Assembly: GCF_035084215.1 (NCBI RefSeq)
Contig: NC_090332.1
Coordinates: 79,918,001 to 79,982,000 of the forward strand
Length of the DNA stretch: 64,000 nt
DNA from: Heptranchias perlo
Taxonomy: Eukaryota
Reading direction: 5' to 3'
Part shown: piece by piece, positions 7,583 through 62,150 of the stretch
Layout: every line of letters begins with the position of its first letter
Numbering within the stretch: position 1 is the stretch's first letter
The notes under the pieces: model-generated
The model's database searches: none
Told to the model about the DNA's origin: nothing
The model's input: the letters and a program-made list of their open reading frames with translations, nothing else
Program-made: the position numbers and the translations under genes

Positions 7583-8641
7583 CATATATATTTGGATAGA
7601 TTACGCAAACAAAACTGTGGAGTTGCTAACAGCCTAATCTCAGTCAATGCTAGTCATCAAGTGCATTTTTAAATAAATGTTGTAGAACAAAAATGATGAA
7701 ATGTGATAATGTTTTGTGATTCTAGTCAAGCTTTGTAAAACATGGATAAAATATTGCTCACCATGAACTTGATGCATTGTTGTCCCTTTTTTTGATGATC
7801 TTTCAATTTTAGTGAGATTTCTCTCATACATTTTTCTGTTTATCTCTTCATGAATGTCTGTTCTCTATATATTTATATTTTGTCATTATTTGTAGTGAGT
7901 TCTGTCTTTATTCCTAGCACTCATCTGCTTTTCAACTTTGAATATTTATGTCTGTCACATCAATTGAAATGTGTACCTGACTTTGTTTATTTGTAAACAA
8001 TTTTACAACACCAAGTTATAGTCCAGCAATTTTATTTTAAATTCACAAGCTTTCGGAGATTTCCTCCTTCCTCAGGCAAATGTTTCAAGAGCTCCTTGAA
8101 GCCTACGCATTTATACATATAGAACAATACATGGTGTTTACAGACTGCCCCTGCAACTGCCCGTTGCCAAGGCAATCACCGTGTTCAGACAGAGAGGTGT
8201 CACCTGCAGAACCCCCGAATACACATTCAACAAAAAAACAAACAGGGAAAAAAAACAGAGAAAAAAAACAGAGAGAGGCAGAAACATCCGGAAGGCAGAG
8301 AGAGCCAGCAAATGACCCATTATATTAAAAACAGATAACATTTGTTCGCTGGTGGGGTAACGTGTAGCGTGACATGAACCCAAGATCCCGGTTGAGGCCG
8401 TCCTCATGGGTGCGGAACTTGGCTATCAATTTCTGCTCGACGATTTTGCGTTGTCGTGTGTCTCGAAGGCCGCCTTGGAGTACGCTTACCCGAAGGTCGG
8501 TGGATGAATGTCCATGACTGCTGAAGTGTTCCCCGACTGGGAGGGAACCCTCCTGTTTGGCGATTGTTGCGCGGTGTCCGTTCATCCGTTGTCGCAGCGT
8601 CTGCATGGTCTCGCCAATGTACCATGGTCTGGGGCATCCTT

Positions 8642-8965
8642 TGCAGGAAAGGATGCCCCAGAGCATGGTACATTGGCGAGACCATGCAGACGCTGCGACA
8701 ACGGATGAACGGACACCGCGCAACAATCGCCAAACAGGAGGGTTCCCTCCCAGTCGGGGAACACTTCAGCAGTCATGGACATTCATCCACCGACCTTCGG
8801 GTAAGCGTACTCCAAGGCGGCCTTCGAGACACACGACAACGCAAAATCGTCGAGCAGAAATTGATAGCCAAGTTCCGCACCCATGAGGACGGCCTCAACC
8901 GGGATCTTGGGTTCATGTCACGCTACACGTTACCCCACCAGCGAACAAATGTTATCTGTTTTTAA
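8642..8965 (+). pseudogene. C-terminal GIY-YIG endonuclease fragment of a Penelope-like ORF (mirror copy at 8325-8648, -)
   Basis: CRKGCPRAWYIGETMQTLRQRMNGHR..VGEHF..EQKLI..GLNRD motifs of PLE GIY-YIG. Confidence 0.9.
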
Positions 8966-9208
8966 TATAATGGGTCATTTGCTGGCTCTCTCTGCCTTCC
9001 GGATGTTTCTGCCTCTCTCTGTTTTTTTTCTCTGTTTTTTTTCCCTGTTTGTTTTTTTGTTGAATGTGTATTCGGGGGTTCTGCAGGTGACACCTCTCTG
9101 TCTGAACACGGTGATTGCCTTGGCAACGGGCAGTTGCAGGGGCAGTCTGTAAACACCATGTATTGTTCTATATGTATAAATGCATAGGCTTCAAGGAACT
9201 CTTGAAAC

Positions 9209-9249
9209 ATTTGCCTGAGGAAGGAGGAAATCTCCGAAAGCTTGTGAAT
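9209..9249 (+). ncRNA. Minimal type I hammerhead ribozyme motif (PLE pLTR type); mirror copy at 8041-8081 (-)
   Basis: CTGAGGA core 9215-9221, stem II GGAG/CTCC, GAAA 9236-9239, palindromic AAGCTT stem III, stem I ATTTGC/GTGAAT. Confidence 0.7.
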
Positions 9250-11516
9250 TTAAAATAAAATTGCTGGACTATAACTTGGTGTTGTAAAATTGTTTACAAT
9301 TGTCAACCCCAGTCCATCACCGGCATCTCCACATCTTGTTTATTTGTGGCCTTTTCTGATATCTCTCCCTATCTATCCCTTTGTGTCATCCTATTTACCA
9401 TTCTTTGTTTGCTTTGTTTGCTTTGCCCTTTTTGACTCCTTGCTATCTTCAGTATTATTCCAATCCATTCCTTATCTCTTTCCTCTTAGTTGTCTTTTCC
9501 TCTTTTCTTGAAGTTGACTCTTCAATTTCTTTCATCTTCTTCCAATACTGTACTTTGAATAGAAGTTAACTGAGAGTTTCAACACTTCAACATTTCCATC
9601 TGCACACAATAGTCGGGGAAATTGAACCTGAATCTGAATGCATGTTTAGCAGCCACATTGTGTATGACACAAAACTTCCTCCAGGTCCTCTAACTTCCTG
9701 CGTTCGCACCAGAGTGAGGTTCCCAACTGCTACTGATTTTGGGGACTTGTTTGTATTTAACTTGCAACAGGTAGAGTGAACCATGGTGCTGAGTGATGTC
9801 TGCTTTCATGGTTTCAACACGACTAGAATAAATATTTAAACCACAGAAACTCCAAGAAAATGCTGTCCTCTCTCTTTCTTCTTCCTTCACATAGAATCAT
9901 CACAATTTACAGCACAGATGGAGGCCATTCAGTCCATTGTATGCCTGTGCTGGCTCTCTGAAAGAGCTACACATTTCATACCATCTACTCATTTCATCCT
10001 ATTCCCTGCCATTTATTTAAAAAAAATTCCAAGTGTTTAGCCATTTTCTTACTGCACAAAGTATGGTAATAGTATAGAACCAGGGCAATTAACAAAGAAA
10101 TAATTTAGGATACCTGTTCCTTTAAGAAAATATATAAGAACATCAGAAAGCATAGAATGAAGAAAGGACATTCGTCCATTAAGCTCACTCATTCCACAGA
10201 TCAGGTGCTATCTGCTCTATTAAGGTCAAGTACTGCAAAAATTCAGTCTCCTGAGGGAAAGTTTGCTTAATTCTTCCTGATCCCCAAAGGAAACCAAACA
10301 AAACCCAGGAACATTCATCCATCCTTGGATTTCCACTAGTTAGCCTCTTGATTGCTGCCTTCCATAGATAACACTAACCCTGCACCAACATTACTGGTAC
10401 CATTGTGTCCTGTGGAATATTTGATTATGCAGTCTGTAACTATCCCTATAACCACCAATCCCACTCCCAAACAGATACTTCCCTCACTTTCTTTCAAAGA
10501 CTGGAACTTGACTGCTTTTGTTCCCAATGTGTGGACTTCCCTATTCTCAAGATGCTATATGAAACCCCATGCCATATACTTCTGACTTCCTTTCCTGCTG
10601 TAATCAGGATCAGTTAAATTGCACTACACTCATGAGCAGGAGAGACCCACAATATGAAACCCATTTTTAGAAATAAATGATTTCTCAGTTTAGTTCCAAT
10701 AGCTTTGACTATGCATCTATCTATAATATATTAAACATTGTTACATCTGCGCACACTTTCTGTCAGTACTACTTGACATCCTGCTGTCACATTTATCCCA
10801 ACTTTTTCTCATTTTAAATTCCTATCTTCACATTTATTGGTTTTGGCTATGTAAACTTATTACTCTGATTATGTAATTCAGCACTGAGTTCCCACAAATA
10901 GCTTAAAATGCTTTGTGAAACTTGTTTTAATTTTGCCATTTTTTCCAGTAGCTGAAATTTCTTATGTTCAAAATAAGGGGAGAGGGAAACTAGTGAAGTG
11001 GGTCCAAAATATATTTTGAAAATTCTTTCAGCTGCCATCTTGGACTCTCCCTAAGGTAAGACGCTTACTGCTGGTAGTAAGTTTTGTAAAATAAAAAGGC
11101 CATTAAAAATAAAAAACGAGACAAAATGATTAAACTTATTTACACAGAAGCGTTTTATGCATTTGAAATGTGTCTAAGAATAATTCAGTCAGAGGCCTGT
11201 GCCTCTCTGACAAGACTAGGGCTTGAGCTCATGGGTTTTCCAGAGCTATCACTGCCAGCTGAAAAGGCTAAACAAAGTAAGGAGCTACAATTATGGGCAT
11301 GTATACGTTAATTTCTGTGGCTGCAACTCCTAGAATTTTTTTGATTGACAGCAAGATTGCTCATTCGCAGTGCCAGGTATTTATAAGCCCAATTCCTTCC
11401 CCATCCCCGTCCAACAATGGAGAAGCACTAATAGGACTATTATCCCAGGAACCTATTTTTAAGAGCAGAACCTGTTTTGCATAAAAATGTCAAAAGAAGG
11501 TAAAGCATAAAAGCAT

Positions 11517-21960: not shown

Positions 21961-23036
21961 ACATTAAATAAGCACCAATACTACAGTACTAAAGCTAGTT
22001 CAATATCTGGACTTTTTCTAGCATAGTAATATGAACGCTATAAAACTAAAACAAACATGTAAATGCAATGGCCCAGATTTTGCTGTAGCAGGGCATCTAG
22101 CAGCATCTGCTGTCAGTTAGATTTGCCCTTGTATGTTTAGGTTTTTAAGTTTTTTGCATGGCAAGTTGCTGAAAGTGTGAGCTGATAACGTCGCAGCAAG
22201 GGAAATGGGGCATCTGGGACCTGAGTGTACAGGGCAAGCAACTGTGCACCTCCTTAAGCAATCAGATTGAAGGATTGTTAAATTAACAGCGCTAGGACTG
22301 AGAAGGAAGTGTAAATTAGAGTGGGTGAATTCAATGTCAAATCAGGTACAGAAAGAGAAATAAAGAGAGGGAAAGAAAGATAGGATTGTGAGAGAGAAAA
22401 AATAGACAGAAAGGAAAAATACATTTTTAAAATTTAAAACACTTGTAATAGTTAATTTTCAGTGCCAGAGAGGCTGGTTGACAGTAATTAACATTTATCA
22501 AGTCATTAAAAGGGTACCTAGACATGAGGGGCACTAAATTGTGCCGTGTAGCGCCCGTCGTTTTGGCGCTACGTGGCCTCTCGAACATCCAAGATGGCGT
22601 CTTGGCTGCGCATGTTTCCAGCGTGATGTGCACCGGACGCCATCTTGGTATAGGAGTTAGCACATGCGCAAATACCGAATGCCAGAAGCATGTAAAGTAG
22701 GGAGAAAATGCGTGCAATCAGTGTGCAACGCTGATTTAAAGCGATAGACACCATTTTGGACCTTAATGCTCAACTCAACGCACAGTCTTAACCACGCACA
22801 CCTGAACATGTCTTAGAGTGCCTGTAGGACCTCCCATCAGCGCTATTTATAGAGACCATGCAGGATTTACAGGTTAGTTGCTGGATTATTGATTCTGGTT
22901 GCTGGTGGAATAGGAATTTTTTTGAAGCTTCCTATACTTACTGAGAGTTCCTAGAGTACATTTGAGAGCGGTTTGGCAGGTACTGCCTTACAGTTCGGAA
23001 AGTTACAACCGTGGTTGAACAACATTCCTGGCAACC

Positions 23037-24220
23037 ATGGGTGGTCTGCTAGGGCTCCTTCTCGGCATTGAGCATGACTGGGAGCATTCAGAGAGGCCAC
23101 ACATAGCAGGTCGAGCTGCGAGGAGAGGGAGGACGAGGAGGCTCAGGGCACTGATCAGGAGGCCATATCCAATGAGGGCCTTCCGGGACCAACTCCCTTA
23201 CCTCAATATGAATGAGGAGTATTGCATCCAACATCTGAGGTTCACCAAGGAAGCTATGACCGAGATCTGTCAACTGGTGTGGCCACAACTGCAGCCTCAG
23301 AGCAAGGCAAGGACAGCATTGCCTATGGCTGTGAAGGTCACTGTGGCGCTGTATTTCTACGGTTCAGGATCATTTCAGGCCTCTGCTGGTGACATGTGCA
23401 ACATCTCGCAGTATGCAGTGCACTGCTGTAGAAGGGAGGTCACAGACGCACAGTACGAGATGAGGAACAGGTTTATCACCTTCCCTCTTGAAAGAGACAA
23501 GCAGAATGAGCGAGTACGGCGGTTCACTCGCATTGCTGGCTTCCCCATGGTCCAGGGTGCCACTGACTCCACGCACATTGCCTTGCATGGCCCACACATC
23601 AACTCGGCCGTCTTCGTCAACTGAAAGGGCTTCCACTCCCTGAATGTGCAGCTGGTGTGCAACCACATGCATTGAATCATAGAGGTCAATGCCCGCTATC
23701 CTGGGAGCAGTCAAGAAGCCTTCGTCATGTGGCAGTCCAACGTGCCAGCTATCTTTCACCTGCCTCGGCAAGTCAAAGGCTGGTTACTAGGCGACAAGGG
23801 CTAGCCCCTCTTGCCATGGCTCATGACTCCGGTCAGGAACCCACGCAGACATGCACAGCAGACCTATAATGAGAGTCATACTGCCACAAGCAACATCGTG
23901 GAGCATACCATAGGCCTCCTCAAACAATGCTTCCGCTGCCTAGACCGGTCTGAAGAAGCCCTGCAGTACGCCCCTGAGTGGGTGGGCAGATCCGTGGTGG
24001 TATGCTGTATGCTGCACAACCTTGCCATCATGAGAGACCAGCCTTTGCCACTAATGATCGGAGAAGACCCTGAGCAGAGGTGGAGGAGGAAGAAGCTGAG
24101 GAGGAGGAGGGGGAGGAGCCGGAAGAGGAAATGGAGGAAGATGCAAGAGTGGAACAGGAACCACTCGCCTTGTCTGCATGGGCTCTGCATGCTCGCCTGA
24201 TCCTTGCCCGCTATCAATAA
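23037..24220 (+). pseudogene. Harbinger DDE transposase (HARBI1-like) with in-frame stops
   Basis: ALPMAVKVTVALYFYGSGSFQ, GFPMVQGATDSTH, KGFHSLNVQLVC, LLGDKG, VEHTIGLLKQCFRCL, CCMLHN; stops at 23622, 23673 and 23802. Confidence 0.92.
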
Positions 24221-24416
24221 TTTGAACTAAATCCCCCAACTCACCAACGGTCCTACACTCCCCATCTTACCACTCCCACAAGACAATCAAATCGTCCTCC
24301 ATCTGATTGCGCATTGGTTTCCCCCTCAGCTCATTGCATGAATAAAAACCACCACCAAATGCAAATTCAAAGTCACATTTATCAATGACTAGATGAAATT
24401 ATGGAAACAGAACAGA

Positions 24417-26252
24417 ACTGTTCACCCTTTTGCATTCCCTTAGTGCCTGTTGTTCGTGTGCCTTTACCTTTCCTAGAGCTCCTATGAGCTGCTTCCCCAG
24501 TGGCTGGAGCACGGGTGGTGGGAGGCTGCTGGCCTTCAATGGAGGAACATGCAGATGGCCTTGGAGGAGACCTCGAGCAGCTCTGGGCTGGGAGGGCCCG
24601 GTTTCAGACTGCATCATCTCGGCATGGGCTGCAGCAGTCTGGCCTGACTGGCCAATAGGCAAAAACAAGGGCACTGGCGGGGTGGTAGGGGTGGGAGCAG
24701 GAATGCCGTCGTCCTGAGAGAGGACAGCAGGTCCGATTGCCATGGCACCACTGCCACTCTCCCGGTGCGGCGCCTCAGCAATCCTGGTGATCAGCTGGAG
24801 AATGGATTGCTGGAGTGCTGTGACACCCTCGAAGCTCCGATCAACAGTGGTCCCCAGAGCCACGATAGAAGCAGTCTGAGCTTCCATTGCCGCAGTCTGA
24901 GCTTACATTGCACTTTCTGAACAGCAACTCTAGCTTGCAGACCTTTGACGACATCGGTTTTTACTGCAATGGAAACCACGTCATCGGCCATCAGACGCTG
25001 CATCATGGTGGGTTCCACAGGTATGCTGACCGAGGTGACCACCTGTTCCATGTGGGAAAGGATGGGCTCCAAGCTCTGTACCAAGCCCTGTGCCAAATTG
25101 GAGCTGGACTCCTCCATGCCCCTTGTCAGTGTGCAAGCTTTCTGGCAGGCTTTCCAGTGCCCCAAGCATTTGTTGGTGTACGCCCATCAGCCGTCTTCGG
25201 TAGCCTGGCCCATCGAAGTCCTCATCTGACTCCTCTGCAGCAGAACTAGTGAGCGACCTCACCCTCCGGCGAGCTGGCACCTGTGGTATCCATTCCCCCT
25301 GCCCCGGCTCCTGCGCACTTGTGCCCGGTATCTCACCACGTGCAGATCCCTCCTCTAAACTGGCCTCCAAATGACGTGCAGTGTCAGTCTCTGAGCTGGT
25401 GGAAGCGAGTGTCAGATCGAGTGACGGTGTGGCTTCAGTGTCCTCCTCCTCCTCCTCCTCCTCCCCCTCAGACGGTGCCTGCTCCAGTTCTTGGGTATCT
25501 GCAATGACAAAGGGAAACAGGTTGAGTTGTGGAGCGGGGAGAAGAGCAAGTAAGATGTGCGTGCCGACAGCACGTGAGTCAGAAAAGATTATGGGAGGAG
25601 AGGGCATGTTGTCATGGCTGCAGCGACGACCCGATGATCCGAAGCACTGTCTCCTCTAGGCGGGTAAGGACATGTAGGCGTCCCTGTCCACCCTCAGGTC
25701 TCTCCTGATGCCAGCTGTTATGCACCACCTTCTCCTGCAAGACAGAGGACAGTGCGTCAGTGAGTATCCTGCAAGGTGTGTGCGTGATGTGCCTGTCATG
25801 GTCGAATAGCTGCCAGTGTGTGTGACCTGTGAGTGTAGTTGTGTGGCAGACAAGTGTGATACTATGTGTGGGTGAGATGCAGCATGCCAAGTGTAGCATT
25901 GCAAAGTGTCTGTTGGTGGGTGGGTGACGGAGAGTGTGATGCGTGGAGCAGTGGTGCAGTTGGTAGGATGCGCCACTTGACACTTGCAGTCGCTCACCTT
26001 AACCACTCGTGTCAAATCATTGAACTTCTTTCGGCACTGCACCCACATGCGTGGTGCCATTCTCCTGGCGTTCACTTCCTGGGCCACAGCCCGCCAATGC
26101 CTGTGGAGCTGCTGTCTGGAGGGTCTCCTGCCACCCTGTGGGTACATATTGGCCCTCCTTTCGTCCACTCCTTCCACCAGGGCCTCCAGTGCATAATCCG
26201 AGAAACGTGGGGCCCTCTCTTGCGCCAGACCTGCCACCCTTGTGTCCATCAT
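24417..26252 (-). pseudogene. Harbinger Myb/SANT-like DNA-binding gene, three exons (26252-25998; 25734-~25610; 25498-~24417), frameshifted
   Basis: RAPRFSDYALEALV..W..VA..VN..R.W.QCRKKFNDL; donor AAG|GTGAG; acceptors TTGCAG at 25735 and 25499; acidic tract. Confidence 0.85.
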
Positions 26253-27764
26253 TCCCTCCTCCTAGTGAACTGTGCATGTCTCTTTTAAAATGTACACCTG
26301 CACCATTAAGAGGTGCAGGCTGCCAGTGACATGCGCTGAGCACGCCCCTTTTCCGGCTTCCTCATTCTCCATGAAACCTCTCAGCAGCGCGGGTAGCGCA
26401 AGCTGCACGGAGATATGGTAAGTAGCAAGCAGCTTGAAATTCGCGCACTGCCTGCATGGGGGCCATCGAGCATGGGGTAATAGCGGATCATGCTACCCGC
26501 TCCCGAAAATGGGCCCCATCGAATTTTTTTTCTCCCGAAATGACAAGAATTAACTTTCTGTGGTGTGTTTCGTTTGTATCTACCACACAAATACAGCAAC
26601 TTCACGGCATTCAATGCATTTCAATGGTGAGGCAGACGGCGAGATGCTGTTTCCGCAAAGCGAATGGCGGAGCAGCACAACTCGGACAGCAACTTTTCTA
26701 TATCCGCGTTTAACCGTCTGCCTCTTTCCTGAAGTTGCTGTACCATTTGTGCAAAAATAACGGCAAACGCCATCCCTATTTGTCACCTGTTGTCCCTATT
26801 TTCCACCCATTCTCATTTCTTAATCCATTTTTCTCCGGCCTCTTTGATTTTACTTCATTTTGCTTAACCTAACCTATTCTATCTTTTATAAGCACTTTAT
26901 CTCCAAACAATAACTTTTAAATCTTTGACGTAACTTTTTTTTTCTCTCTTCCTCCTGGCTTCAAATATCCATTTTGGAGACCGAAGTAACTTTTTAAGAA
27001 AGTGTTTTCATTGGCTGAAAACTGGCGGAAAAGGCCTAGATTTTTTAGAGCCAAAGTGAAACTGTTGAAGAGTAAGGCTGGATTAATATGGCACTCTATG
27101 GGGCCTAAAATGGATGAGACAAACTCCTAGAGAGGTTCACATACCTCAGGACTTTGATGCACAGTGTTGTCTTCTGAGTTTTAATGCCACTATTTCCTTG
27201 ACATGCACCCAAAGCCACTTTACATCAACACAAAGTGGCAGCATTAATGCAGCCTTGCATGGTCACACTATTACTGTGATGAGATAATGCTTTATTATAT
27301 TTTTGATTCATAAAAACATGGAAGAGGCTGCTGAATGGGGTTATAATGGATGGTAGCCCCCAGAACCTGACAGTGCCCGGATGAGTAAACTTGCCCTTGG
27401 TGCCGGAAGGGTTAACAAATTAAATTAGGAAGTTGGACCCCCTGAAGTTTGGCTTACACCTCAGTATAGTTTTCCTTGCCATCCTGTATTTAGTAGAAAT
27501 TAAGTGTGGCTAATATTCCACCTGATACCCTAATGTACTAGTGAGAAAAAATTAAGATGTGAAAAAATGGTGATTCACATGTTAACACATGAGTGGAAAA
27601 TTTAAGAAAATACCTAAGTGTCTCAGAAAAGACAATTCCTCCCTTTAACGTTTATTAGTGGTGCTTTGTCCCTTGTTAAAAACTGGTTGAAAATCAGTAG
27701 GGAATCCAGCAGTCTTAAAGAGGGACTTTTGACATGAAAAACTGGTTTACACACTCTTTTTGCA

Positions 27765-36254: not shown

Positions 36255-39094
36255 TCATAGAATCATAGAATCATAGAAGTTACAACATGGAAACAGGCCC
36301 TTCGGCCCAACATGTCCATGTCGCCCAGTTTATACCACTAAGCTAGTCCCAATTGCCTGCACTTGGCCCATATCCCTCGATACCCATCTTACCCATGTAA
36401 CTGTCCAAATGCTTTTTAAAAGACAAAATTGTACCCGCCTCTACTACTGCCTCTGGCAGCTCGTTCCAGACACTCACCACCCTTTGAGTGAAAAAATTGC
36501 CCCTCTGGACCCTTTTGTATCTCTCCCCTCTCACCTTAAATCTGTGCCCCCTCGTTATAGACTCCCCTACCTTTGGGAAAAGATTTTGACTATCTACCTT
36601 ATCTATGCCCCTCATTATTTTATAGACTTCTATAAGATCACCCCTTAACCTCCTACTCTCCAGGGAACAAAGTCCCAGTCTGTCTAACCTCTCCCTGTAA
36701 GTCAAACCATCAAGTCCCGGTAGCATCCTAGTAAATCTTTTCTGCACTCTTTCTAGTTTAATAATATCCTTTCTATAATAGGGTGACCAGAACTGTACAC
36801 AGTACTCCAAGTGTGGCCTCACCAATGCCCTGTACAACTTCAACAAGACATCCCAACTCCTGCATTCAATGTTCTGACCAATGAAACCAAGCATGCTGAA
36901 TGCCTTCTTCACCACCCTATCCACCTGTGACTCCACTTTCAAGGAGCTATGAATCTGTACTCCCAGATCTCTTTGTTCTATAACTCTCCCCAACGCCCTA
37001 CCATTAACGGAGTAGGTCCTGGCCCAATTCGATCTACCAAAATGCATCACCTCACATTTATCTAAATTAAACTCCATCTGCCATTCATCGGCCCACTGGC
37101 CCAATTGATCAAGATCCCGTTGCAATCCTAGATAACCTTCTTCACTGTCCACAATGCCACCAATCTTGGTGTCATCTGCAAACTTACTAACCATGCCTCC
37201 TAAATTCTCATCCAAATCATTAATATAAATAACAAATAACAGCGGACCCAGCACCGATCCCTGAGGCACACCGCTGGACACAGGCATCCAGTTTGAAAAA
37301 CAACCCTCTACAACCACCCTCTGTCTTCTGTCGTCAAGCCAATTTTGTATCCAATTGGCTACCTCACCTTGGATCCCATGAGATTTAACCTTATGTAACA
37401 ACCTACCATGCGGTACCTTGTCAAATGCTTTGCTGAAGTCCATGTAGACCACGTCTACTGCACAGCCCTCATCTATCTTCTTGGTTACCCCTTCAAAAAA
37501 CTCAATCAAATTCGTGAGACATGATTTTCCTCTCACAAAACCATGCTGACTGTTCCTAATTAGTCCCTGCCTCTCCAAATGCCTGTAGATCCTGTCCCTC
37601 AGAATACCCTCTAACAACTTACCCACTACAGATGTCAGGCTCACTGGTCTGTAGTTCCCAGGCTTTTCCCTGCCGCCCTTCTTAAACAAAGGCACAACAT
37701 TTGCTACCCTCCAATCTTCAGGCACCTCACCTGTAGCGGTGGATGATTCAAATATCTCTGCTAGGGGACCCGCAATTTCCTCCCTAACCTCCCATAACGT
37801 CCTGGGATACATTTCATCAGGTCCCGGAGATTTATCTACCTTGATGTGCGTTAAGACTTCCAGCACCTCCCTCTCTGTAATATGTACACTCCTCAAGACA
37901 TCACTATTTATTTCCCCAAGTTCCCTAACATCCATGCCTTTCTCAACCGTAAATACCGATGTGAAATATTCATTCAGGATCTCACCCATCTCTTGTGGTT
38001 CCGCACATAGATGACCTTGTTGATCCTTAAGAGGCCCTACTCTCTCCCTAGTTACCCTTTTGCCCTTTATGTATTTGTAGAAGCTCTTTGGATTCACCTT
38101 TGCCTGATCTGCCAAAGCAATCTCATATCCCCTTTTTGCCCTCCTGATTTCTCTCTTAACTCTACTCCGGCAATCTCTATACTCTTCAAGGGATCCACTT
38201 GATCCCAGCTGCCTATGCATGTCATATGCCTCCTTCTTCTTTTTGACTAGTGCCTCAATCTCCCGAGTCATCCAAGGTTCCCTACTTCTACCAGCCTTGC
38301 CCTTCACTTTATAAGGAATGTGCTTACCCTGAACCCTGGTTAACACACTTTTGAAAGCCTCCCACTTACCAGACGTCCCTTTGCCTGCCAACAGACTCTC
38401 CCAATCAACTTCTGAAAGTTCCTGTCTAATACCATCAAAATTGGCCTTTCCCCAATTCAGAATTTTAACTTTTGGGCCAGACCTATCCTTCTCCATAGCT
38501 ATCTTAAAACTAATGGAATTATGATCACTGGTCCCAAAGTGATCCCTCACTAACACTTCTGTCACCTGCCCTTCCTTATTTCCCAAGAGGAGGTCAAGTT
38601 TTGCCCCCTCTCTAGTCGGGCCATCCACATACTGAATGAGAAATTCCTCCTGAATACACTCAACAAATTTCTCTCCATCCAAGCCCCTAATGCTATGGCT
38701 GTCCCAGTCAATGTTGGGAAAGTTAAAGTCCCCTACTATTACCACCCTATTTTTCTTGCAGCTGTCTGTAATCTCCTTACATATTTGCACCTCAATCTCC
38801 CGTTGACTATTTGGGGGTCTGTAGTACAATCCTATCAAAGTGATCTCTCCCTTCTTATTTTTCAGTTCTACCCATATAGACTCAGTGGGCGAACCCTCGG
38901 ATATATCCCCTCTCACTACTGCCGTGATGTTCTCCCTAATCAAGAACGCAACTCCCCCTCCTCTCTTACCTCCTGCTCTATCTTTCCTATAGCATCTGTA
39001 CCCTGGAACATTGAGCTGCCAGTCCTGCCCCTCCCTTAGCCATGTTTCAGTAATAGCGATAACATCCCAGTCCCATGTACCCATCCATGCCCTG
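36255..39094 (-). mobile_element. Young CR1 LINE, 5'-truncated just inside ORF2
   Basis: (TTCTATGA)3 tail at the left end; uninterrupted APE-RT ORF. Confidence 0.96.
36343..39093 (-). CDS. CR1 ORF2 (AP endonuclease plus reverse transcriptase), open frame, native start lost
   Basis: ITETWL, GDFN, SDHN, NYRPVSL, DFSKAFD, VPQGSVLGP, KFADD; the ~19 N-terminal residues in the ORF track come from flank DNA. Confidence 0.9.
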   Translation of the reverse strand, partial: RAWMGTWDWDVIAITETWLREGQDWQLNVPGYRCYRKDRAGGKRGGGVAFLIRENITAVVRGDISEGSPTESIWVELKNKKGEITLIGLYYRPPNSQREIEVQICKEITDSCKKNRVVIVGDFNFPNIDWDSHSIRGLDGEKFVECIQEEFLIQYVDGPTREGAKLDLLLGNKEGQVTEVLVRDHFGTSDHNSISFKIAMEKDRSGPKVKILNWGKANFDGIRQELSEVDWESLLAGKGTSGKWEAFKSVLTRVQGKHIPYKVKGKAGRSREPWMTREIEALVKKKKEAYDMHRQLGSSGSLEEYRDCRSRVKREIRRAKRGYEIALADQAKVNPKSFYKYIKGKRVTRERVGPLKDQQGHLCAEPQEMGEILNEYFTSVFTVEKGMDVRELGEINSDVLRSVHITEREVLEVLTHIKVDKSPGPDEMYPRTLWEVREEIAGPLAEIFESSTATGEVPEDWRVANVVPLFKKGGREKPGNYRPVSLTSVVGKLLEGILRDRIYRHLERQGLIRNSQHGFVRGKSCLTNLIEFFEGVTKKIDEGCAVDVVYMDFSKAFDKVPHGRLLHKVKSHGIQGEVANWIQNWLDDRRQRVVVEGCFSNWMPVSSGVPQGSVLGPLLFVIYINDLDENLGGMVSKFADDTKIGGIVDSEEGYLGLQRDLDQLGQWADEWQMEFNLDKCEVMHFGRSNWARTYSVNGRALGRVIEQRDLGVQIHSSLKVESQVDRVVKKAFSMLGFIGQNIECRSWDVLLKLYRALVRPHLEYCVQFWSPYYRKDIIKLERVQKRFTRMLPGLDGLTYRERLDRLGLCSLESRRLRGDLIEVYKIMRGIDKVDSQNLFPKVGESITRGHRFKVRGERYKRVQRGNFFTQRVVSVWNELPEAVVEAGTILSFKKHLDSYMGKMGIEGYGPSAGNWD

Positions 39095-39297
39095 CTTTGG
39101 AAGGCTGAGCTGTACAACAGTAACAGGTCATGAGGACACACTTTGCACAATACATACTTGTGACAGATACTTGCTGTAGGAATCTACCAGCATCACCATG
39201 GCACCTTCCCTCAAGTACGCCATCTTCTTTCACATTTGCAGCTAGGTGTAGAAAAGAACAATCACCTTTCAGCTATCTCCTGCCAGGTGTTTTGGAT

Positions 39298-41975
39298 GAT
39301 ATACAGTCAGGAGGGAGTGGCCCTGGGAGTCCTCAACATTGACTCTGGACCCCATGAAATCTCATGGCATCAGGTCAAACATGGGCAAGGAAACCTCCTG
39401 CTGATTACCACCTACCGTTCTCCCTCAGCTGATGAATCAGTCCTCCTCCATGTTGAACACCACTTGGAGGAAGCACTGAGGGTAGCAAGGGCACAAAATG
39501 TACTCTGGGTGGGGGACTTCAATGTCCATCACCAAGAGTGGCTCGGTAGCACCACTACTGACCGAGCTGGCCGAGTCCTGAAGGACATAGCTGCTAGACT
39601 GGGCCTGTGGCAGGTGGTGAGCGAACCAACACGAGGGAAAAACTTACTTGACCTCGTCCTCACCAATCTACCTGTCGCAAATGCATCTGTCCATGACAGT
39701 ATTGGTAGGAGTGACCACCGCACAGTCCTCGTGTAGATGAAATCCCGTCTTCGCACTGAGGACACCATCCAACGTGTTGTGTGGCACTACCACCGTGCTA
39801 AATGGGATAGATTCAGAATGGATCTAGCAGCTCAAAACTGGGCATCCATGAGGCGCTGTGGGCCATCAGCAGCAGCAGAATCGTATTCCAGCACAATCTG
39901 TAACCTCATGGCCCGGCATATTCCTCACTCTACCATTACCAACAAGCCAGGGGATCAACTCTGGTTCAATGAGGAGTGTAGAAGAGCATGCCAGGAGCAG
40001 CACCAGGCGTACCGAAAAATGAGGTGCCAACCTGGTGAAGCTACAACTCAGGACTACATGCATGCTAAACAGCGGAAGCAACATGCTATAGACAGAGCGA
40101 AGCGATTCCACAACCAACGGATCAGATCAAAGCTCTGCAGTCCTGCCACATCCAGTCGTGAATGGTGGTGGACAATTAAACAACTAACGGGAGGAGGAGG
40201 CTCCGCAAACATCCCCATTCTCAATGATGGCGGAGTCCAGCACGGGAGTGCAAAAGACAAGGCTGAAGCGTTTGCAACCATCTTCAGCCAGAAGTGCCGA
40301 GTGGATAATCCATCTCAGCCTCCTCCCGATATCCCCACCATCACGGAAGCCAGTCTTCGGCCAATTCGATTCACTCCACGTGATATCAAGAAACGGCTGA
40401 GTGCACTGGATACAGCAAAGGCTATGGGCCCCGACAACATCCCAGCTGTAGTGCTGAAGACTTGTGCTCCAGAACTAGCTGCGCCTCTAGCCAAGCTGTT
40501 CCAGTACAGCTACAACACTGGCATCCACCCGACAATGTGGAAAATTGCCCAGGTATGTCCTGTCCACAAAAAGCAGGACAAATCCAATCCGGCCAATTAC
40601 CGCCCCATCAGTCTACTCTCAATCATCAGCAAAGTGATGGAAGGTGTCGTCGACAGTGCTATCAAGCGGTACTTACTCACCAATAACCTGCTCACCGATG
40701 CTCAGTTTGGGTTCCGCCAGGACCACTCGGCTCCAGACCTCATTACAGCCTTGGTCCAAACATGGACAAAAGAGCTGAATTCCAGAGGTGAGGTGAGAGT
40801 GACTGCCCTTGACATCAAGGCAGCATTTGACCGAGTGTGGCACCAAGGAGCCCTAGTAAAATTGAAGTCAATGGGAATCAGGGAGAAAACTCTCCAGTGG
40901 CTGGAGTCATACCTAGCACAAAGGAAGATGGTAGTGGTTGTTGGAGGCCAATCATCTCAGCCCCAGGACATTGCTGCAGGAGTTCCTCAGGGCAGTGTCC
41001 TAGGCCCAACCATCTTCAGCTGCTTCATCAATGACCTTCCCTCCATCATAAGGTCAGAAATGGGGATGTTCGCTGATGACTGCACAGTGTTCAGTTCCAT
41101 TCGCAACCCCTCAGATAATGAAGCAGTCCGAGCCTGCATGCAGCAAGACCTGGACAACATCCAGGCTTGGGCTCATAAGTGGCAAGTAACATTCGCGCCA
41201 GATAAGTGCCAGGCAATGACCATCTCCAACAAGAGAGAGTCTAACCACCTCCCCTTGACATTCAACGGCATTACCATTGCCGAATCCCCCACCATCAACA
41301 TCCTGGGAGTCACCATTGACCAGAAACTTAACTGGACCAGCCATATAAATACTGTGGCTACGAGAGCAGGTCAGAGGCTGGGTATTCTGCGGCGAGTGAC
41401 TCACCTCCTGACTCCCCAAAGCCTTTCCACCATCTACAAGGCACAAGTCAGGAGTGTGATGGAATACTCTCCACTTGCCTGGAAGAGTGCAGCTCCAACA
41501 ACACTCAAGAAGCTCGACACCATCCAAGATAAAGCAGCCCGCTTGATTGGCACCCCATCCACCACCCTAAACATTCACTCCCTTCACCACCGGCGCACTG
41601 TGGCTGCAGTGTGTACCATCCACAGGATGCACTGCAGCAACTCGCCAAGGCTTCTTCGACAGCACCTCCCAAACCCGCGACCTCTACCACCTAGAAGGAC
41701 AAGGGCAGCAGGCGCATGGGAACAACACCACCTGCACGTTCCCCTCCAAGTCACACACCATCCCGACTTGGAAATATATCGCCGTTCCTTCATTGTCGCT
41801 GGGTCAAAATCCTGGAACTCCCTTCCTAACAGCACTGTGGGAGAACCTTCACCACACGGACTGCAGCGGTTCAAGAAGGCGGCTCACCACCACCTTCTCG
41901 AGGGCAATTAGGGATGGGCAATAAATGCCGGCCTTGCCAGCGACACCCACATCCCGTGAACGAATAAAAAAAAAA
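39298..41975 (+). mobile_element. Young non-LTR retrotransposon of the CR1/L2 group (family distinct from the neighbouring CR1), 5'-truncated, A-tailed
   Basis: APE (VGDFN, LDLVL, SDH) plus RT (NYRPISL, LDIKAAFD, VPQGSVLGP, MFADD); AATAAA then A tail. Confidence 0.93.
39299..41911 (+). pseudogene. LINE ORF2 with a single nonsense codon (TAG 39734-39736)
   Basis: Track ORFs 39236-39736 and 39737-41911 are contiguous in the same frame. Confidence 0.9.
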
Positions 41976-50276: not shown

Positions 50277-51388
50277 ATTGTCTTTTAGTTAAAAATACCA
50301 TAGGCTAAATCCATCAGTCCTGCGATCCCAGAGGGGAGGCGCACTTGAAAAGAATGTGAGCCATAGAAAGGACTACTTCACTGTAAACCCGTATTATCCA
50401 ACCCACACTCCCTTTGAGCTTGTCTCCTCACCGGGAGTGTTAGACTGGTGAGTTTACCCACATCATTCTGGGCTCCCCGGTGGCTCAGGCAGTCAGAATA
50501 GTGAGCAGCCGAGCCACATAAACCAGGAAGGTACCAGGTTTAATCCCTGATCTGTGGTGAATTGGGTGGTAGGGGGTGCCCCAGCACTCCTGGGTTAGGG
50601 AATGGAAAATCTGTTAGGGTATCTCCTGATCGCTGTTCAGTGGCAACTCTGCCAGAAAGTGCCACATATGTGGATATCAGGTGAGGACAGTCACCTGATG
50701 ACCTCCATGGGAATAAGTAGCCTGCTTGCTGCTCACTGTGCAGGCTTATATACAAAAATGGCTGCTTTAGTAAGGTACCAGAAAGCACATGGACCTGTAC
50801 CCCAGGAGGGAGCCAATGCCTTCAGGAGGGAAGAAAATCAGAGGAGAAAAAGCACTGTTTGAGACCATCATTTGCAGAATTAACATATGACGGAAATCTG
50901 CCCACTTTACCGTTAAACTACAAATAAAATGATTTTTTCTTGTATTAATCAAATCTAATTGTTGGCTTTAATGATATTATACGTGTTACAGTAAAGGGTC
51001 AGCAGGGAAAAATCTCTGTGCAATGTCAACCAGAGATCAAATAAATCAATCAGTGCTCATTGCACACAGCAGTGGAATTTTGCATGTTTACATGTTCTCT
51101 TCAGGGCTTACAGTTTATAATTTAGTTACTTTAAAAGGTTTGTTTATTTTTATTAAAATCCCATCAAATGCTTCAAGGGTGCCCATGATTGGATTTACAG
51201 ACCATTACATTTTTAAAGGATTAAATCCTAATTGCTCTGAAATCACACAGCATGTCTAAGATGTGGTTTCATAGATGCGACCATTACAATGTCATTTCAG
51301 ACAGTGTGATAATTAATATAGACACGTTAGGGCTGATTCCGCAATCCTGGGCAAACAGGCACTTCAGTGCCCTGACAATGGTGGAGTA

Positions 51389-51603
51389 TTGTAAACAATT
51401 TTACAACACCAAGTTATAGTCCAACTATTTTATTTGAAAATCACAAGCTTTCGGAGGCTTCCTCCTTCCTCAGGTGAATTCACCTGAGGAAGGAGGAAGC
51501 CTCCGAAAGCTTGTGATTTTCAAATAAAATAGTTGGACTATAACTTGGTGTTGTAAAATTGTTTACAATTGTCAACCCCAGTCCATCACCGGCATCTCCA
51601 CAT
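51389..51603 (+). mobile_element. Minimal Penelope-like insertion: perfect ~180-bp palindrome plus 34-nt tail
   Basis: Palindrome centred on GAATTC (51476-51481); 12-bp TSD AATGGTGGAGTA at 51377-51388 and 51604-51615; homologous to 9210-9334. Confidence 0.92.
51480..51516 (+). ncRNA. Minimal hammerhead ribozyme motif; mirror copy on - at 51441-51477
   Basis: TCAC-CTGAGGA-A-GGAGG-AAG-CCTCC-GAAA-GCTT-GTGA. Confidence 0.72.
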
Positions 51604-51799
51604 AATGGTGGAGTAGGAAGCTGACTGTGCCAGATTCGGCAAGCTCAGCTACTATACATCACTGTAATATTCTCCAGACGCACAAGGAGCGCTATGGCTA
51701 CTCGTGAGTGTAAAAGGGGAGTGCAGCAGCTCTTTAAGGGCTGCTGATCTTAAAGGTCTAGTGTTCTTTGCTTTTGCTGTTTTCTATTATGGCTGGTTG

Positions 51800-59469: not shown

Positions 59470-60590
59470 GGAGTGGGAGAGGGGGGGGCGCAATGGCTGC
59501 ATTCACCAGTACATCTGAGGAGGAGACACATCACCACCCTCGCCAGGCACGGTGTGCACTTCTGCCACTTGCAGCTCCACAGCACAGAGGTGCGCCAGAG
59601 GGACCTGCACAAGAGCAGCGAGGGCAACAACAGAGGGAACAACGCCCCCGGAGGCACTACCCTCGTGAGAGGGTCTACAGACCGAGGCTGAGCTTCCTGG
59701 ACCTCTCTGAGGTGCAGTGCCTATGAAGGCTCAGAATGAGTCACCAGGTGGTTGCAGATATCTGCAGCCTCCTTCATGCCGAGCTGCTCCCGGCTGGGCC
59801 TGGTGGCATCGCATTGTCCGTGGCAGTTAAAGTGACCACTGCTCTTAACCTCTTCGCTTCCGGATCCTTCCAGGGCACCACCGGTGACATCACCGGGGTC
59901 TCTCAGTCATCTGCACACAAGTGCATAAAACAGATGGATTATTTTGCAGGGCGTCCCCATGGACAACCGAAGCCAGATGGAGAGGGCAGTGGGTTTCCAC
60001 TCTGTGTCTGGCTTCCCACGGGCACAGGGTGCAATTGATTGCACGCATATTGCAATCCGAGCACCTCCACATGAGCCAGGACTATCCATCAACAGAAAGG
60101 GATATCACACCATCAATGTGCAGCTCGTTTGCAACCAGATTAATATATTTCTTCATGTGTGTGCCAGATTCCCTGGCAGCTGCCATGATTCATTCATTCT
60201 GGATAGCTCCTCGGAGACAAGACTCATGACACCTGTGAGAATCTCTATCAGCGAGGAACAGTGTCGCTACAATGTCAGTCACATCGCCACCAGGTCTGTC
60301 ATTGAACATGCGATAGGACTGCTGAAGATGTGATTTCAGTGCCTGGATTGGTCTGGGGGAGCGCTTCAATACGCACCAGCGAGAGTGGGTCGAATTATGG
60401 TCATCTGTTGTGTCCTGCACAACATGCACAACAGAGAGAGTTACTGGTTGATGAGGCCTCGTGCCCTCATCCACCACCATCCACATCTGCCATCAACATT
60501 GAGGAGGCTGTGGAGGAGGACGAACCCATCAGCAGAGCAGCGGCTCACCTGGCTGATTGTGAGGCCAGCGAGTTACTAATATTTGAATGA
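59470..60590 (+). pseudogene. Harbinger transposase with stops, frameshifts and loss of the GDxGY region
   Basis: ALSVAVKVTTALNLFASGSFQ, GFPRAQGAIDCTH, NRKGYHTINVQLVC, ARFPGSCHD, IEHAIGLLK, CCVLHN. Confidence 0.9.
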
Positions 60591-60929
60591 TTCTCCTAAG
60601 GACATCAGCAAAATGAGGATCGTCCAGTCCTCAGACCACCTGGAAAGTACAACGCCAACACCAGTGCCCCCCCCCCCCACCCCCCCAAAAAAAACCAGTC
60701 CTACAACTATACATACAACCTCTGTAAACTCACCCACTAGGTGGCATCAAGTCTCGCCATTCACGATAAAGCACATGAAAGGGCGCTATCACAAAAGCCA
60801 GTCAAGAATGGGCAAGACGTGGAAGTAGTGGTGAGAATGCTAACATTTAATGTGAATTTAACAAAAAACAAATATAAATGAAAAACGGGACCATCTGTCA
60901 GACACCCTTGTGCATACCCTTTGTGATCA

Positions 60930-62150
60930 CAAAACTTTAGCCTTTCGCTTCCTACTACTTTTACGTGGTGCATCGCCTGTGGCTGTAGCAGAGGTAGCAG
61001 TAGGTTGCTCATGTTCATGCCCTGACTGTTGAGGTGCTTTTGACCTACGCTGTCTGGGCTTTGGAGCACGTGAGGGCCCCTCCAAAGACTGCTCCATCTG
61101 CACCTGTGCAGGGGCAGACTCGGCCACCTGGAGAGGAGGCAGCATTGTGGGTGCTGGTTCGCAGGGGGGGGGGCAACAGGTGAAATGCAGGAGCGCTTTG
61201 AGTGGCGTCCCCACTTCCATGTCTCCTTTCGCCATCATCCCTCTCCTGGGCCAGGGCCACATCCCTCCTACCACCCTGCTGGACAACAGTTTGGAGGACA
61301 TGTGTGATGCCTTGGAAGCCCAGTTGTAAAGTGTCTGTCTGCCTGTTTAAGGCGGCAGAATGTTGTTCACCCTGAGTCCGAATGGCCATTGTCAGGGCTT
61401 GAATGGACTCATTTGTGAGCCGTGCTTGAAGCTCTATGGAGGCTGGCCTTCTCTCCATCGCAGACATTCCCACACTTACCTGTGCCACCAGTCCACTAAT
61501 ACAGGAGGTGGACTCCTCCATCCTCTCCGCTATTGTGGAGAACGCGCATGGCACCTGTTCCAGTACCTCGCAAATGTGCTGCTGTCCCTTGATCATTCTC
61601 TTTTTAAAGGATGGCCCTCGGGGTTCAGCATCTGCGTCCAGCTGAGCAGAGCCTGGAGAGGAGTGCGCCCACCGACGTGGACTCTCCACAGCTGCCCTTG
61701 CCACCAGTGTCTGCTCGTGCTCACTTGTGTGTGGTGACTCACCAGGTGCCAAAGCAACTAACTGACTACTAGGACCCACCGAAGTGTGAGTATCTGCACT
61801 GGTGGATGGCTCACTAAGATGTGACGGTGCGCCCTCGAAGGACAGGAGCTCCTCTGAGGAATTGCCTTCTCCTGTCACTTCGGTCGCTGAAGGGCCTGGA
61901 ATAGAACAGAAAGCAATGTTAGGCATCATCATGGATGTGTAATGTTGCGATAAGCATACTGAGTGGTCAACATGCCAATCATTGTTAACATCACTTCATG
62001 TTGTTTGTGATGAATGTTAAAGTTGTGTCACCAGACGTTTATGGGGTGCCAGTCTCGGCATCCCTGATGGACAGGCACTCGAGGGTGTGGCCTCCTCCTC
62101 CCCACTCTGTGCGGACCACTATTTGTTGTGGCCCCTCTCCTGAGCATCCA
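60930..62150 (-). pseudogene. Harbinger accessory (Myb-type) gene, last exon (61895 down to ~60930) and exon-2 remnant; Myb exon missing
   Basis: Acceptor TTCTATTCCAG at 61896; STSADT, RMEESTS and basic C-terminus parallel the gene at 24417-26252. Confidence 0.7.

Follow-up and report, generated by a model that had tools for sequence, protein, structure and literature searches.

A 1.3-kb palindromic insertion of a Penelope-like retrotransposon in Heptranchias perlo and the possible origin of its inverted arm

The palindrome and a second family copy in the window

The window analyzed here is a 64,000-nucleotide stretch of the Heptranchias perlo genome (NC_090332.1, 79,918,001 to 79,982,000), and all positions below refer to it. 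Between 7983 and 9343 it holds an insertion that consists of the 3′ 695 nt of a Penelope-like family together with an inverted copy of the same sequence. Two 8-bp target-site duplications, both TTGTTTAT, bound the insertion at 7983–7990 and 9336–9343 (plus strand). The inverted arm (7991–8642, minus strand, 652 nt) is a copy of the element from a fixed internal site, 36 nt before its 3′ end, back to the fold point. It is followed by a 5-nt loop (8643–8647, plus strand), which is native element sequence in agreement with family contigs, and by the sense arm (8648–9299, plus strand, 652 nt), which contains the nuclease end, the 3′ UTR, and the pLTR. The family 3′ end forms an unpaired, one-sided tail of 35–36 nt (9300 to 9334/9335, plus strand). 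Over the 1309 bp of the palindrome, 649 of 652 arm pairs match, and the three mismatched pairs are 8092/9198, 8106/9184, and 8627/8663. A private coding change is located at 8627, in the inverted arm. Bases 8641–8642 are common to both arms, giving a 2-nt overlap. Three more bases beyond the duplication (7991–7993) are identical to the right flank, but they also form the start of the arm. A preliminary description had reported a loop of about 5 nt, a duplication of at least 8 bp, and a palindrome placed in GIY-YIG coding sequence, all of which agree with these coordinates, the fold point lying within the GIY-YIG coding part. Its near-perfect arms, few mismatches, and one-sided tail also held, but the arms measure 652 nt and not 654, the mismatched pairs number three and not about four, and the tail is 35–36 nt and not 34.

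When the window was base-shuffled five times, exact arms separated by at most 10 nt reached a maximum of 8–10 nt per shuffle. The real window contained exact arms of at least 13 nt only at the 7991–9299 palindrome and at a second family copy at 51.4 kb. This second copy (51389–51603, plus strand) has perfect 90-nt arms (51389–51478 and 51479–51568) with no loop, a 35-nt tail, and a 12-bp duplication (51377–51388 and 51604–51615). Its left end is as in the first copy, 115 of 121 nt are identical between the two, and it belongs to a different subfamily. The fixed internal end at the −36 site was seen in both window copies, as was the combination of a 30–40-bp one-sided tail, an inverted 5′ copy, and a target duplication. 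Since the outer ends are the same in both copies, they are dictated by the element, whereas the position of the inner fold differs between copies.

Both outer junctions of the first copy were found with 0 mismatches in single-copy-depth contigs of DNA run X1 (depth 12.4 and 13.2). These contigs enter the element by just 25 and 20 nt, whereas the bridging standard is 31 nt, and X1 is possibly the source sample. In the runs compared, no contig or read spanned the full palindrome; its centre junction was absent among the contig pieces listed, and no empty-allele joint was present among the best 15 of 185 joint records. Family contigs agree with the window from 8641 onward (loose ends; X9 record 29) and go loose after 9335 in X1 (91 contigs) and also in X5 and X7. 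The palindrome at 7991–9299 is confirmed as real. It has persisted long enough for three arm differences, unless these were acquired at insertion. A fold at a natural 6-bp palindrome combined with a 3-nt deletion was also considered and was dropped because family contigs fit the window from 8641.

Coding content of the family and anatomy of its pLTR

The sense arm encodes the 5′-truncated end of a GIY-YIG endonuclease (8642–8965, plus strand, 104 aa), with a Pfam GIY-YIG match (E = 0.013) that falls below the cut-off. Truncation has removed its first (VVY) motif as well as the initial Cys of CCHH. The 104 aa are 100% identical to the annotated H. perlo proteins P0042, P0053, and P0054, which lie on different contigs, and P0048 shows 100% identity over 93 aa. 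The RT domains of the relatives P0053 and P0048 score above the Pfam cut-off (RVT_1, E = 1e-9 and 4e-10), and these family copies, identical to the sense arm, combine, in one ORF, RT with a GIY-YIG nuclease at the C-terminus. Among 18 aligned proteins, C523, H558, and H574 of the CCHH motif are invariant and C534 is nearly so. A DKG motif precedes RT in P0048, P0002, and P0012, the three alignment rows reaching it, and the alignment places a Cys linker (C-x4-C-x2-C) between RT and nuclease in P0053, P0048, P0002, and P0042. A CX2-5CxxC linker between RT and nuclease is described as a defining motif common to Neptune and Nematis (PMC8557442). By the definitions presented in that source, the protein sequences identify the family as canonical EN+ Penelope-like, of the Neptune or Nematis type. 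The Penelope-like identity, inverted arm, tail, and duplication given in the preliminary description are supported.

Because the fold point separates the nuclease's two signature motifs, the window copy encodes neither RT nor a whole nuclease. It is a non-autonomous, 5′-truncated insertion of a Penelope-like retrotransposon and is itself most likely an inert passenger. The family is young and very abundant. A total of 21,734 X1 contigs aligned, with a summed depth of 0.25–2.06 million over the element vs 12–37 on the flanks, a measure distinct from copy number, and the arms of the copy at 7991–9335 diverge at 3 of 652 positions. The long ORFs scanned in the window are LINE and Harbinger-like remnants, with Pfam matches in 6 of 8.

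Other identities were tried and rejected. The top protein match, P0001, is annotated as an isoform of XRCC5 (Ku80), and its last 104 aa are those encoded by the sense arm. The window yielded no XRCC5 exon, however, and P0001 is not assignable to the window copy because P0042, P0053, and P0054 on other contigs are equally identical. A MITE or Foldback DNA transposon, which would have symmetric inverted repeats at its two termini, was ruled out by the 35–36-nt unpaired tail at one end and by arms taken from a retroelement ORF. A microRNA precursor (mir-3130 and others) scored 52.1 bits in Rfam against a gathering threshold of 95, and any perfect hairpin matches in this manner; the miRNA and snoRNA matches from the Rfam search of the window copy were all below threshold. 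An exact DNA motif scan of metagenome contigs returned 0 matches.

Within the pLTR, a TATA-like box (9175–9181, plus strand; mirror copy 8109–8115, minus strand) stands 40 nt before the core of a candidate minimal type I hammerhead (9209–9249, plus strand; mirror copy 8041–8081) with a predicted cut after 9243. The motif comprises stem I (9209–9214/9244–9249), the core (9215–9221), an extra A, stem II (9223–9226/9232–9235), and a palindromic loop III. The structure was drawn on the window copy and compared with an alignment of five sequences, two of them close kin. Pairing holds in 67 of 68 cells and both sides have changed in 3 of 14 pairs, a result reached by 3 of 500 shuffles. Three of six relatives from metagenome contigs carry the same hammerhead, and the Rfam search gave no hammerhead match in the window copy. 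The TATA-to-hammerhead spacing is 39–40 nt in the window copy, L003, and L006 but not in L005 (two of three hammerhead-bearing relatives), and L006 has an initiator match at TATA+31. From the TATA position, a transcript start at about 9205–9206 is predicted. A conserved stem surrounds the internal −36 site (9266–9270/9311–9315, plus strand), with 25 of 25 cells pairing and one compensatory change. Compared with shuffled sequences, single-strand folds of the pLTR showed no excess stability (z −0.3 to −1.7). Loose ends past 9335 start with ATG in three runs, which suggests that in intact tandems the tail is followed immediately by the ORF start.

Family fold-back junctions and the origin of the inverted arm

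On the palindromic reference, fold-backs of other family copies read as skips. The best-supported 15 of 185 joint records and 12 of 119 extra-letter records together provided 23 distinct joints. Nineteen came from DNA run X1 and were reduced to 18 by merging mirror images, the sign of the arm offset being meaningless on such a reference. The four junctions from RNA-labelled runs were left out, since hairpins may be skipped by RT in library preparation. As only best-supported records were used, the junction counts are biased toward recurrent short fold-backs and do not represent genome-wide proportions; subfamily differences shift the listed positions by a few bases. Given this preselection, shuffle and binomial P values for the junctions are given no weight here.

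In 16 of the 18 listed distinct X1 junctions, the arm lengths were at most 12 nt apart; the other two differed by 26 and about 100 nt. The commonest listed fold-backs had arms of about 90 nt, and the longer arm ended at 9203–9207 (TATA+28 to +32) in 11 of the 18. The fold of the second window copy, whose junction has no pairable terminal bases and zero loop, sits at the edge of this cluster. The deepest listed family junction had 2 pairable terminal bases and a 3-nt loop. Pairable terminal bases were missing in 14/18 listed junctions, the loop was 0–2 nt in 7/18, one zero-loop junction lay at 9200/9200, and extra bases occurred at 7/18. In two invertebrate-like relatives, L001 and L005, the inverted junctions were widely spaced (about 224 and 873 nt), and the fixed left end was absent among the loose-end records listed. 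The rarity of a near-spacerless fold-back, implied in the preliminary description, was not supported, given how frequent such forms are among the listed family junctions and the second example in the same window. The hammerhead cut was rejected as a fold hot spot; the cluster lies about 38 nt upstream of the predicted cut, and 1/18 listed junctions falls at most 6 nt from that cut. Under either of the two models discussed below, the clustering at TATA+28 to +32 suggests that RT primed at a 5′-proximal tail and then ran off the 5′ end of the RNA.

The inverted arm probably arose during a truncated Penelope-like insertion, from new first-strand cDNA folding back and priming its own copy. The nuclease would make staggered nicks, in keeping with the observed duplication. 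RT would prime on the target at the tail end (9335), copy 695 nt, and stop at 8641 in the nuclease gene, where the insertion is truncated. The last two cDNA bases would then pair across the 5-nt loop, the geometry present at the junction, and synthesis would continue back along the cDNA. It would terminate 36 nt before the 3′ end, at the fixed internal site, and the snap-back product would be joined to the other target end, leaving the tail on one side. Repair or replication would open the hairpin into a palindrome. For the family fold-backs with ~90-nt arms, RT likely primed at the 5′-proximal tail and continued to the predicted transcript start, where the RNA template ends. Family contigs fit the window from 8641, so a cDNA that ends at this base can pair its final two nucleotides across the 5-nt loop, and we infer that the junction of the 7991–9299 palindrome, with its 2-nt pairing and 5-nt loop, fits snap-back. 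The preliminary description had already invoked snap-back, which would suit both the window junction and family junctions, but twin priming is a serious rival and the idea had been published before, self-priming having been proposed for such junction palindromes in rotifer elements (PMC3846280). Internal RT starts at tail ends were shown in vitro (PMC11167929). Loops of 0–2 nt are too tight for a plain hairpin and are better suited by end-joining of two cDNAs, and the long spacers of L001 and L005 count against snap-back.

Twin priming has a lower but appreciable probability. The target strands would each prime RT, one at the tail end and the other at the −36 site; both cDNAs would terminate where the RNA template has its 5′ end (a break or the transcript start), and short homology or end-joining would link the cDNA 3′ ends. 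An anole element cleaves and extends both strands, and its two start sites delimit the tail (PMC11167929). Twin priming would account for the fixed left end and the tail, for the zero-loop junctions (the second copy and 9200/9200), and for the extra bases at 7/18 listed junctions, and it is the better fit to the 7/18 listed loops of 0–2 nt and the 14/18 listed junctions without pairable bases. However, the 652-nt copy would need both cDNAs to stop at most 7 nt apart at an arbitrary ORF point, that is, a broken RNA copied twice, and both the window junction and the deepest listed family junction are hairpin-compatible.

For the family cluster, as opposed to the 652-nt copy, it is unlikely that the ~90-nt-arm class represents one non-autonomous palindromic unit, with the cluster reflecting a few amplified founders instead of repeated run-off. 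Identical junctions at a depth of 43–755, compared to about 13 for unique flanks, are what such amplification would produce, but at least 11 different junction forms have the same longer-arm end within 5 nt, and the second window copy is yet another form from a different subfamily. Library fold-back artefacts are still conceivable as a source of the cluster, against which stand the 11 different junction forms sharing an end and the assembled second copy at the cluster edge.

It is improbable that later central deletion shaped the 7991–9299 palindrome, with a once longer insertion (a large spacer or longer arms) being fragile and trimmed to a near-spacerless centre. Deletions at palindromes tend to widen asymmetry and not to remove it, which counts against this origin. 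The listed family junctions cluster at one site, a pattern that independent deletions would not readily give. On the other side, long-spacer forms exist in relatives, and long, close inverted repeats stall replication and break, with repeats separated by a 12-bp spacer stalling forks in model systems (PMC7999016). A fold-back read or assembly artefact is scarcely credible as the source of the 7991–9299 palindrome, for although no record covers the whole stretch, the centre junction is missing among the pieces listed, and X1 may be the source sample, the three arm differences, the one-sided tail, the target duplication, the X1 contigs joining different unique flanks to each end, and the second copy, which shares these ends but is flanked by a separate 12-bp duplication, all speak against it. 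Snap-back of first-strand cDNA is retained as the preferred origin.

Double-stranded RNA, significance, and known systems

It is doubtful that the palindrome serves as a functional dsRNA source silencing the family in trans. If transcribed, it would form a 652-bp stem (−1336 kcal/mol, computed fold). Only 2 of 37 listed variant records were more than 1.4-fold enriched in both RNA-labelled runs vs same-sample DNA, and both are A-to-G on the sense strand of the element, in a U-A-U context. At 8220, the change was present in 0 DNA contigs vs 13 and 14 RNA contigs, and at 9271 it reached 0.5% in DNA vs 5.2% and 2.6% in the RNA-labelled runs. This comparison is family-wide, drawn from contigs of one sample, with the RNA status of the runs guessed, and the enrichment gives a weak hint of editing. 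However, the A>G/T>C class makes up 7/37 listed records, so the chance of both top ranks is about 0.03. The two predicted promoters of the element lie about 120 nt from the outer ends and face outward, and a hairpin transcript would consequently need host read-through. ORF, protein, and Pfam comparisons found no host gene exon in the window, which also weighs against a dsRNA role. The flanks were essentially without cover in the two RNA-labelled runs, which says nothing on expression. The trans-silencing role assigned to this locus in the preliminary description was thus not shown, as the predicted promoters point outward and the editing hint is at the family level only.

As a single insertion, the palindrome is ordinary for its class, for which an inverted copy, a tail, and self-priming have already been published. 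The listed family fold-backs add a new observation, suggesting that they often end at the predicted transcript start. We tentatively propose, as a reading with somewhat less than even prospects, that in this family RT is routinely primed at the tail close to the transcript's 5′ end and runs off at the start, after which the strong-stop-like cDNA folds back and is inserted. Near-spacerless palindromes (about 200 bp, some above 1.3 kb) would then be very numerous in the genome. Their centres would mark the promoter and cDNA ends, they would persist despite their known fragility, and their transcripts would be A-to-I edited. The family is useful for tracing how PLE inverted copies and tails arise, since the later insertion steps of these elements are stated to await validation (PMC11167929). 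With a young, abundant family whose junctions record cDNA stops and end joining, counting could tell snap-back from twin priming. If transcription begins at the TATA+28 to +32 cluster, genomic DNA would show a strong-stop-like intermediate, and the family would also offer a natural set of long, tight palindromes whose stability could be measured in a vertebrate germline. In our literature search, no paper connected the ends of fold-backs with the transcript start or reported such palindromes from sharks; subscription papers and supplements, which lay beyond that search, may do so.

Retroviral minus-strand strong-stop DNA is likewise a short cDNA that stops where its RNA has its 5′ end, but it is transferred and not folded back and inserted. 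L1 twin priming produces an inversion during target-primed insertion, and the 3′ end is not duplicated. Both resemble the family here by analogy only.

Closer parallels exist among PLEs. An inverted truncated copy beside the 5′ end together with a 30–40-bp tail is a described PLE pattern (PMC8557442, PMC2377424). The insertion shares with the complex EN+ PLE insertions of these sources an inverted truncated copy at the 5′ end, a one-sided tail, a pLTR hammerhead, and, in relatives, RT with a C-terminal GIY-YIG. Unlike them, it has equal arms, the whole insertion is one palindrome, and there is no tandem copy and no RT. The candidate hammerhead resembles the metazoan PLE minimal hammerheads in its extra base between 9 and 10.1, its G10.1-C11.1 pair, and its palindromic 15.2–16.2 (PMC4209133); the word "shark" is absent from the main text of that article. 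Minimal hammerheads are also treated in PMC6155905. As in Poseidon PAc of Anolis carolinensis, two fixed sites bound the tail, and they lie at a stem-loop that follows the hammerhead downstream (PMC11167929). PAc belongs to a different clade, its ORF begins inside the hammerhead whereas here the ATG appears to follow the tail, and inverted copies are not treated in the available text of that study. Adineta vaga Pen2/Pen2a/Pen3a share with this family an inverted pLTR, a tail (31 bp), a duplication of 8–10 bp, a TATA-like box in the pLTR, and palindromes ascribed to self-priming at the inverted junction (PMC3846280). In those elements, the junction palindromes measure 18–38 bp compared to 1309 bp here, and their authors favoured self-priming on an antisense template (PMC3846280), whereas fold-back of first-strand cDNA would fit the present insertion.

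Fold-back copies and their target sites

A second copy from the same family of Penelope-like elements as the main palindrome was located at 51377-51615. It carried perfect 90-nt arms, lacked a loop, and was flanked by a 12-bp duplication. Its fold point falls where the hammerhead begins on the 5' side. Inverted junctions with long spacers were present in two distant relatives from metagenome contigs. The junction of L001 (1-496) had a spacer of about 224 nt, and that of L005 (1-109 and 983-1091) had one of about 873 nt. The L005 junction also showed a 2-nt overlap, and this element terminated in ATG, 3' of a tail-like region.

At the main copy, matching to 28 other contigs (loose ends) of the DNA run X1 continued about 9 nt beyond the tail (9336-9344) before diverging. 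The target of this copy resembled the element's own 9290-9296. A T-rich target preference for family insertion is possible.

Family transcripts and host gene models

Among 37 listed variant rows, only 8220 and 9271 were RNA-enriched, the RNA status of the runs being guessed. Each was an A-to-G change in a U-A-U context, making A-to-I editing of family transcripts possible.

Annotated shark gene models (P0001, P0010, and P0028; named XRCC5 isoform X2, PPP1R12A-like, and FAM174A-like) joined host exons to the family nuclease. In the XRCC5 model, the nuclease end replaced the C-terminal part of Ku80. These fusions may be annotation artefacts. The join fell at about the same nuclease residue across the fused models, at a site equivalent to 8645-8652 of the window. 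This agreement in position suggests that a cryptic splice acceptor is used recurrently.

Other mobile elements

Two LINE ORFs were arranged back to back, one of 946 aa (36343-39183, minus strand) with endonuclease and RT domains and one of 724 aa (39164-41911, plus strand) with an RT domain. Both look young. Harbinger-like remnants with DDE_Tnp_4 matches occupied 23019-26261, with a Myb/SANT match on the opposite strand, and 59929-61995.
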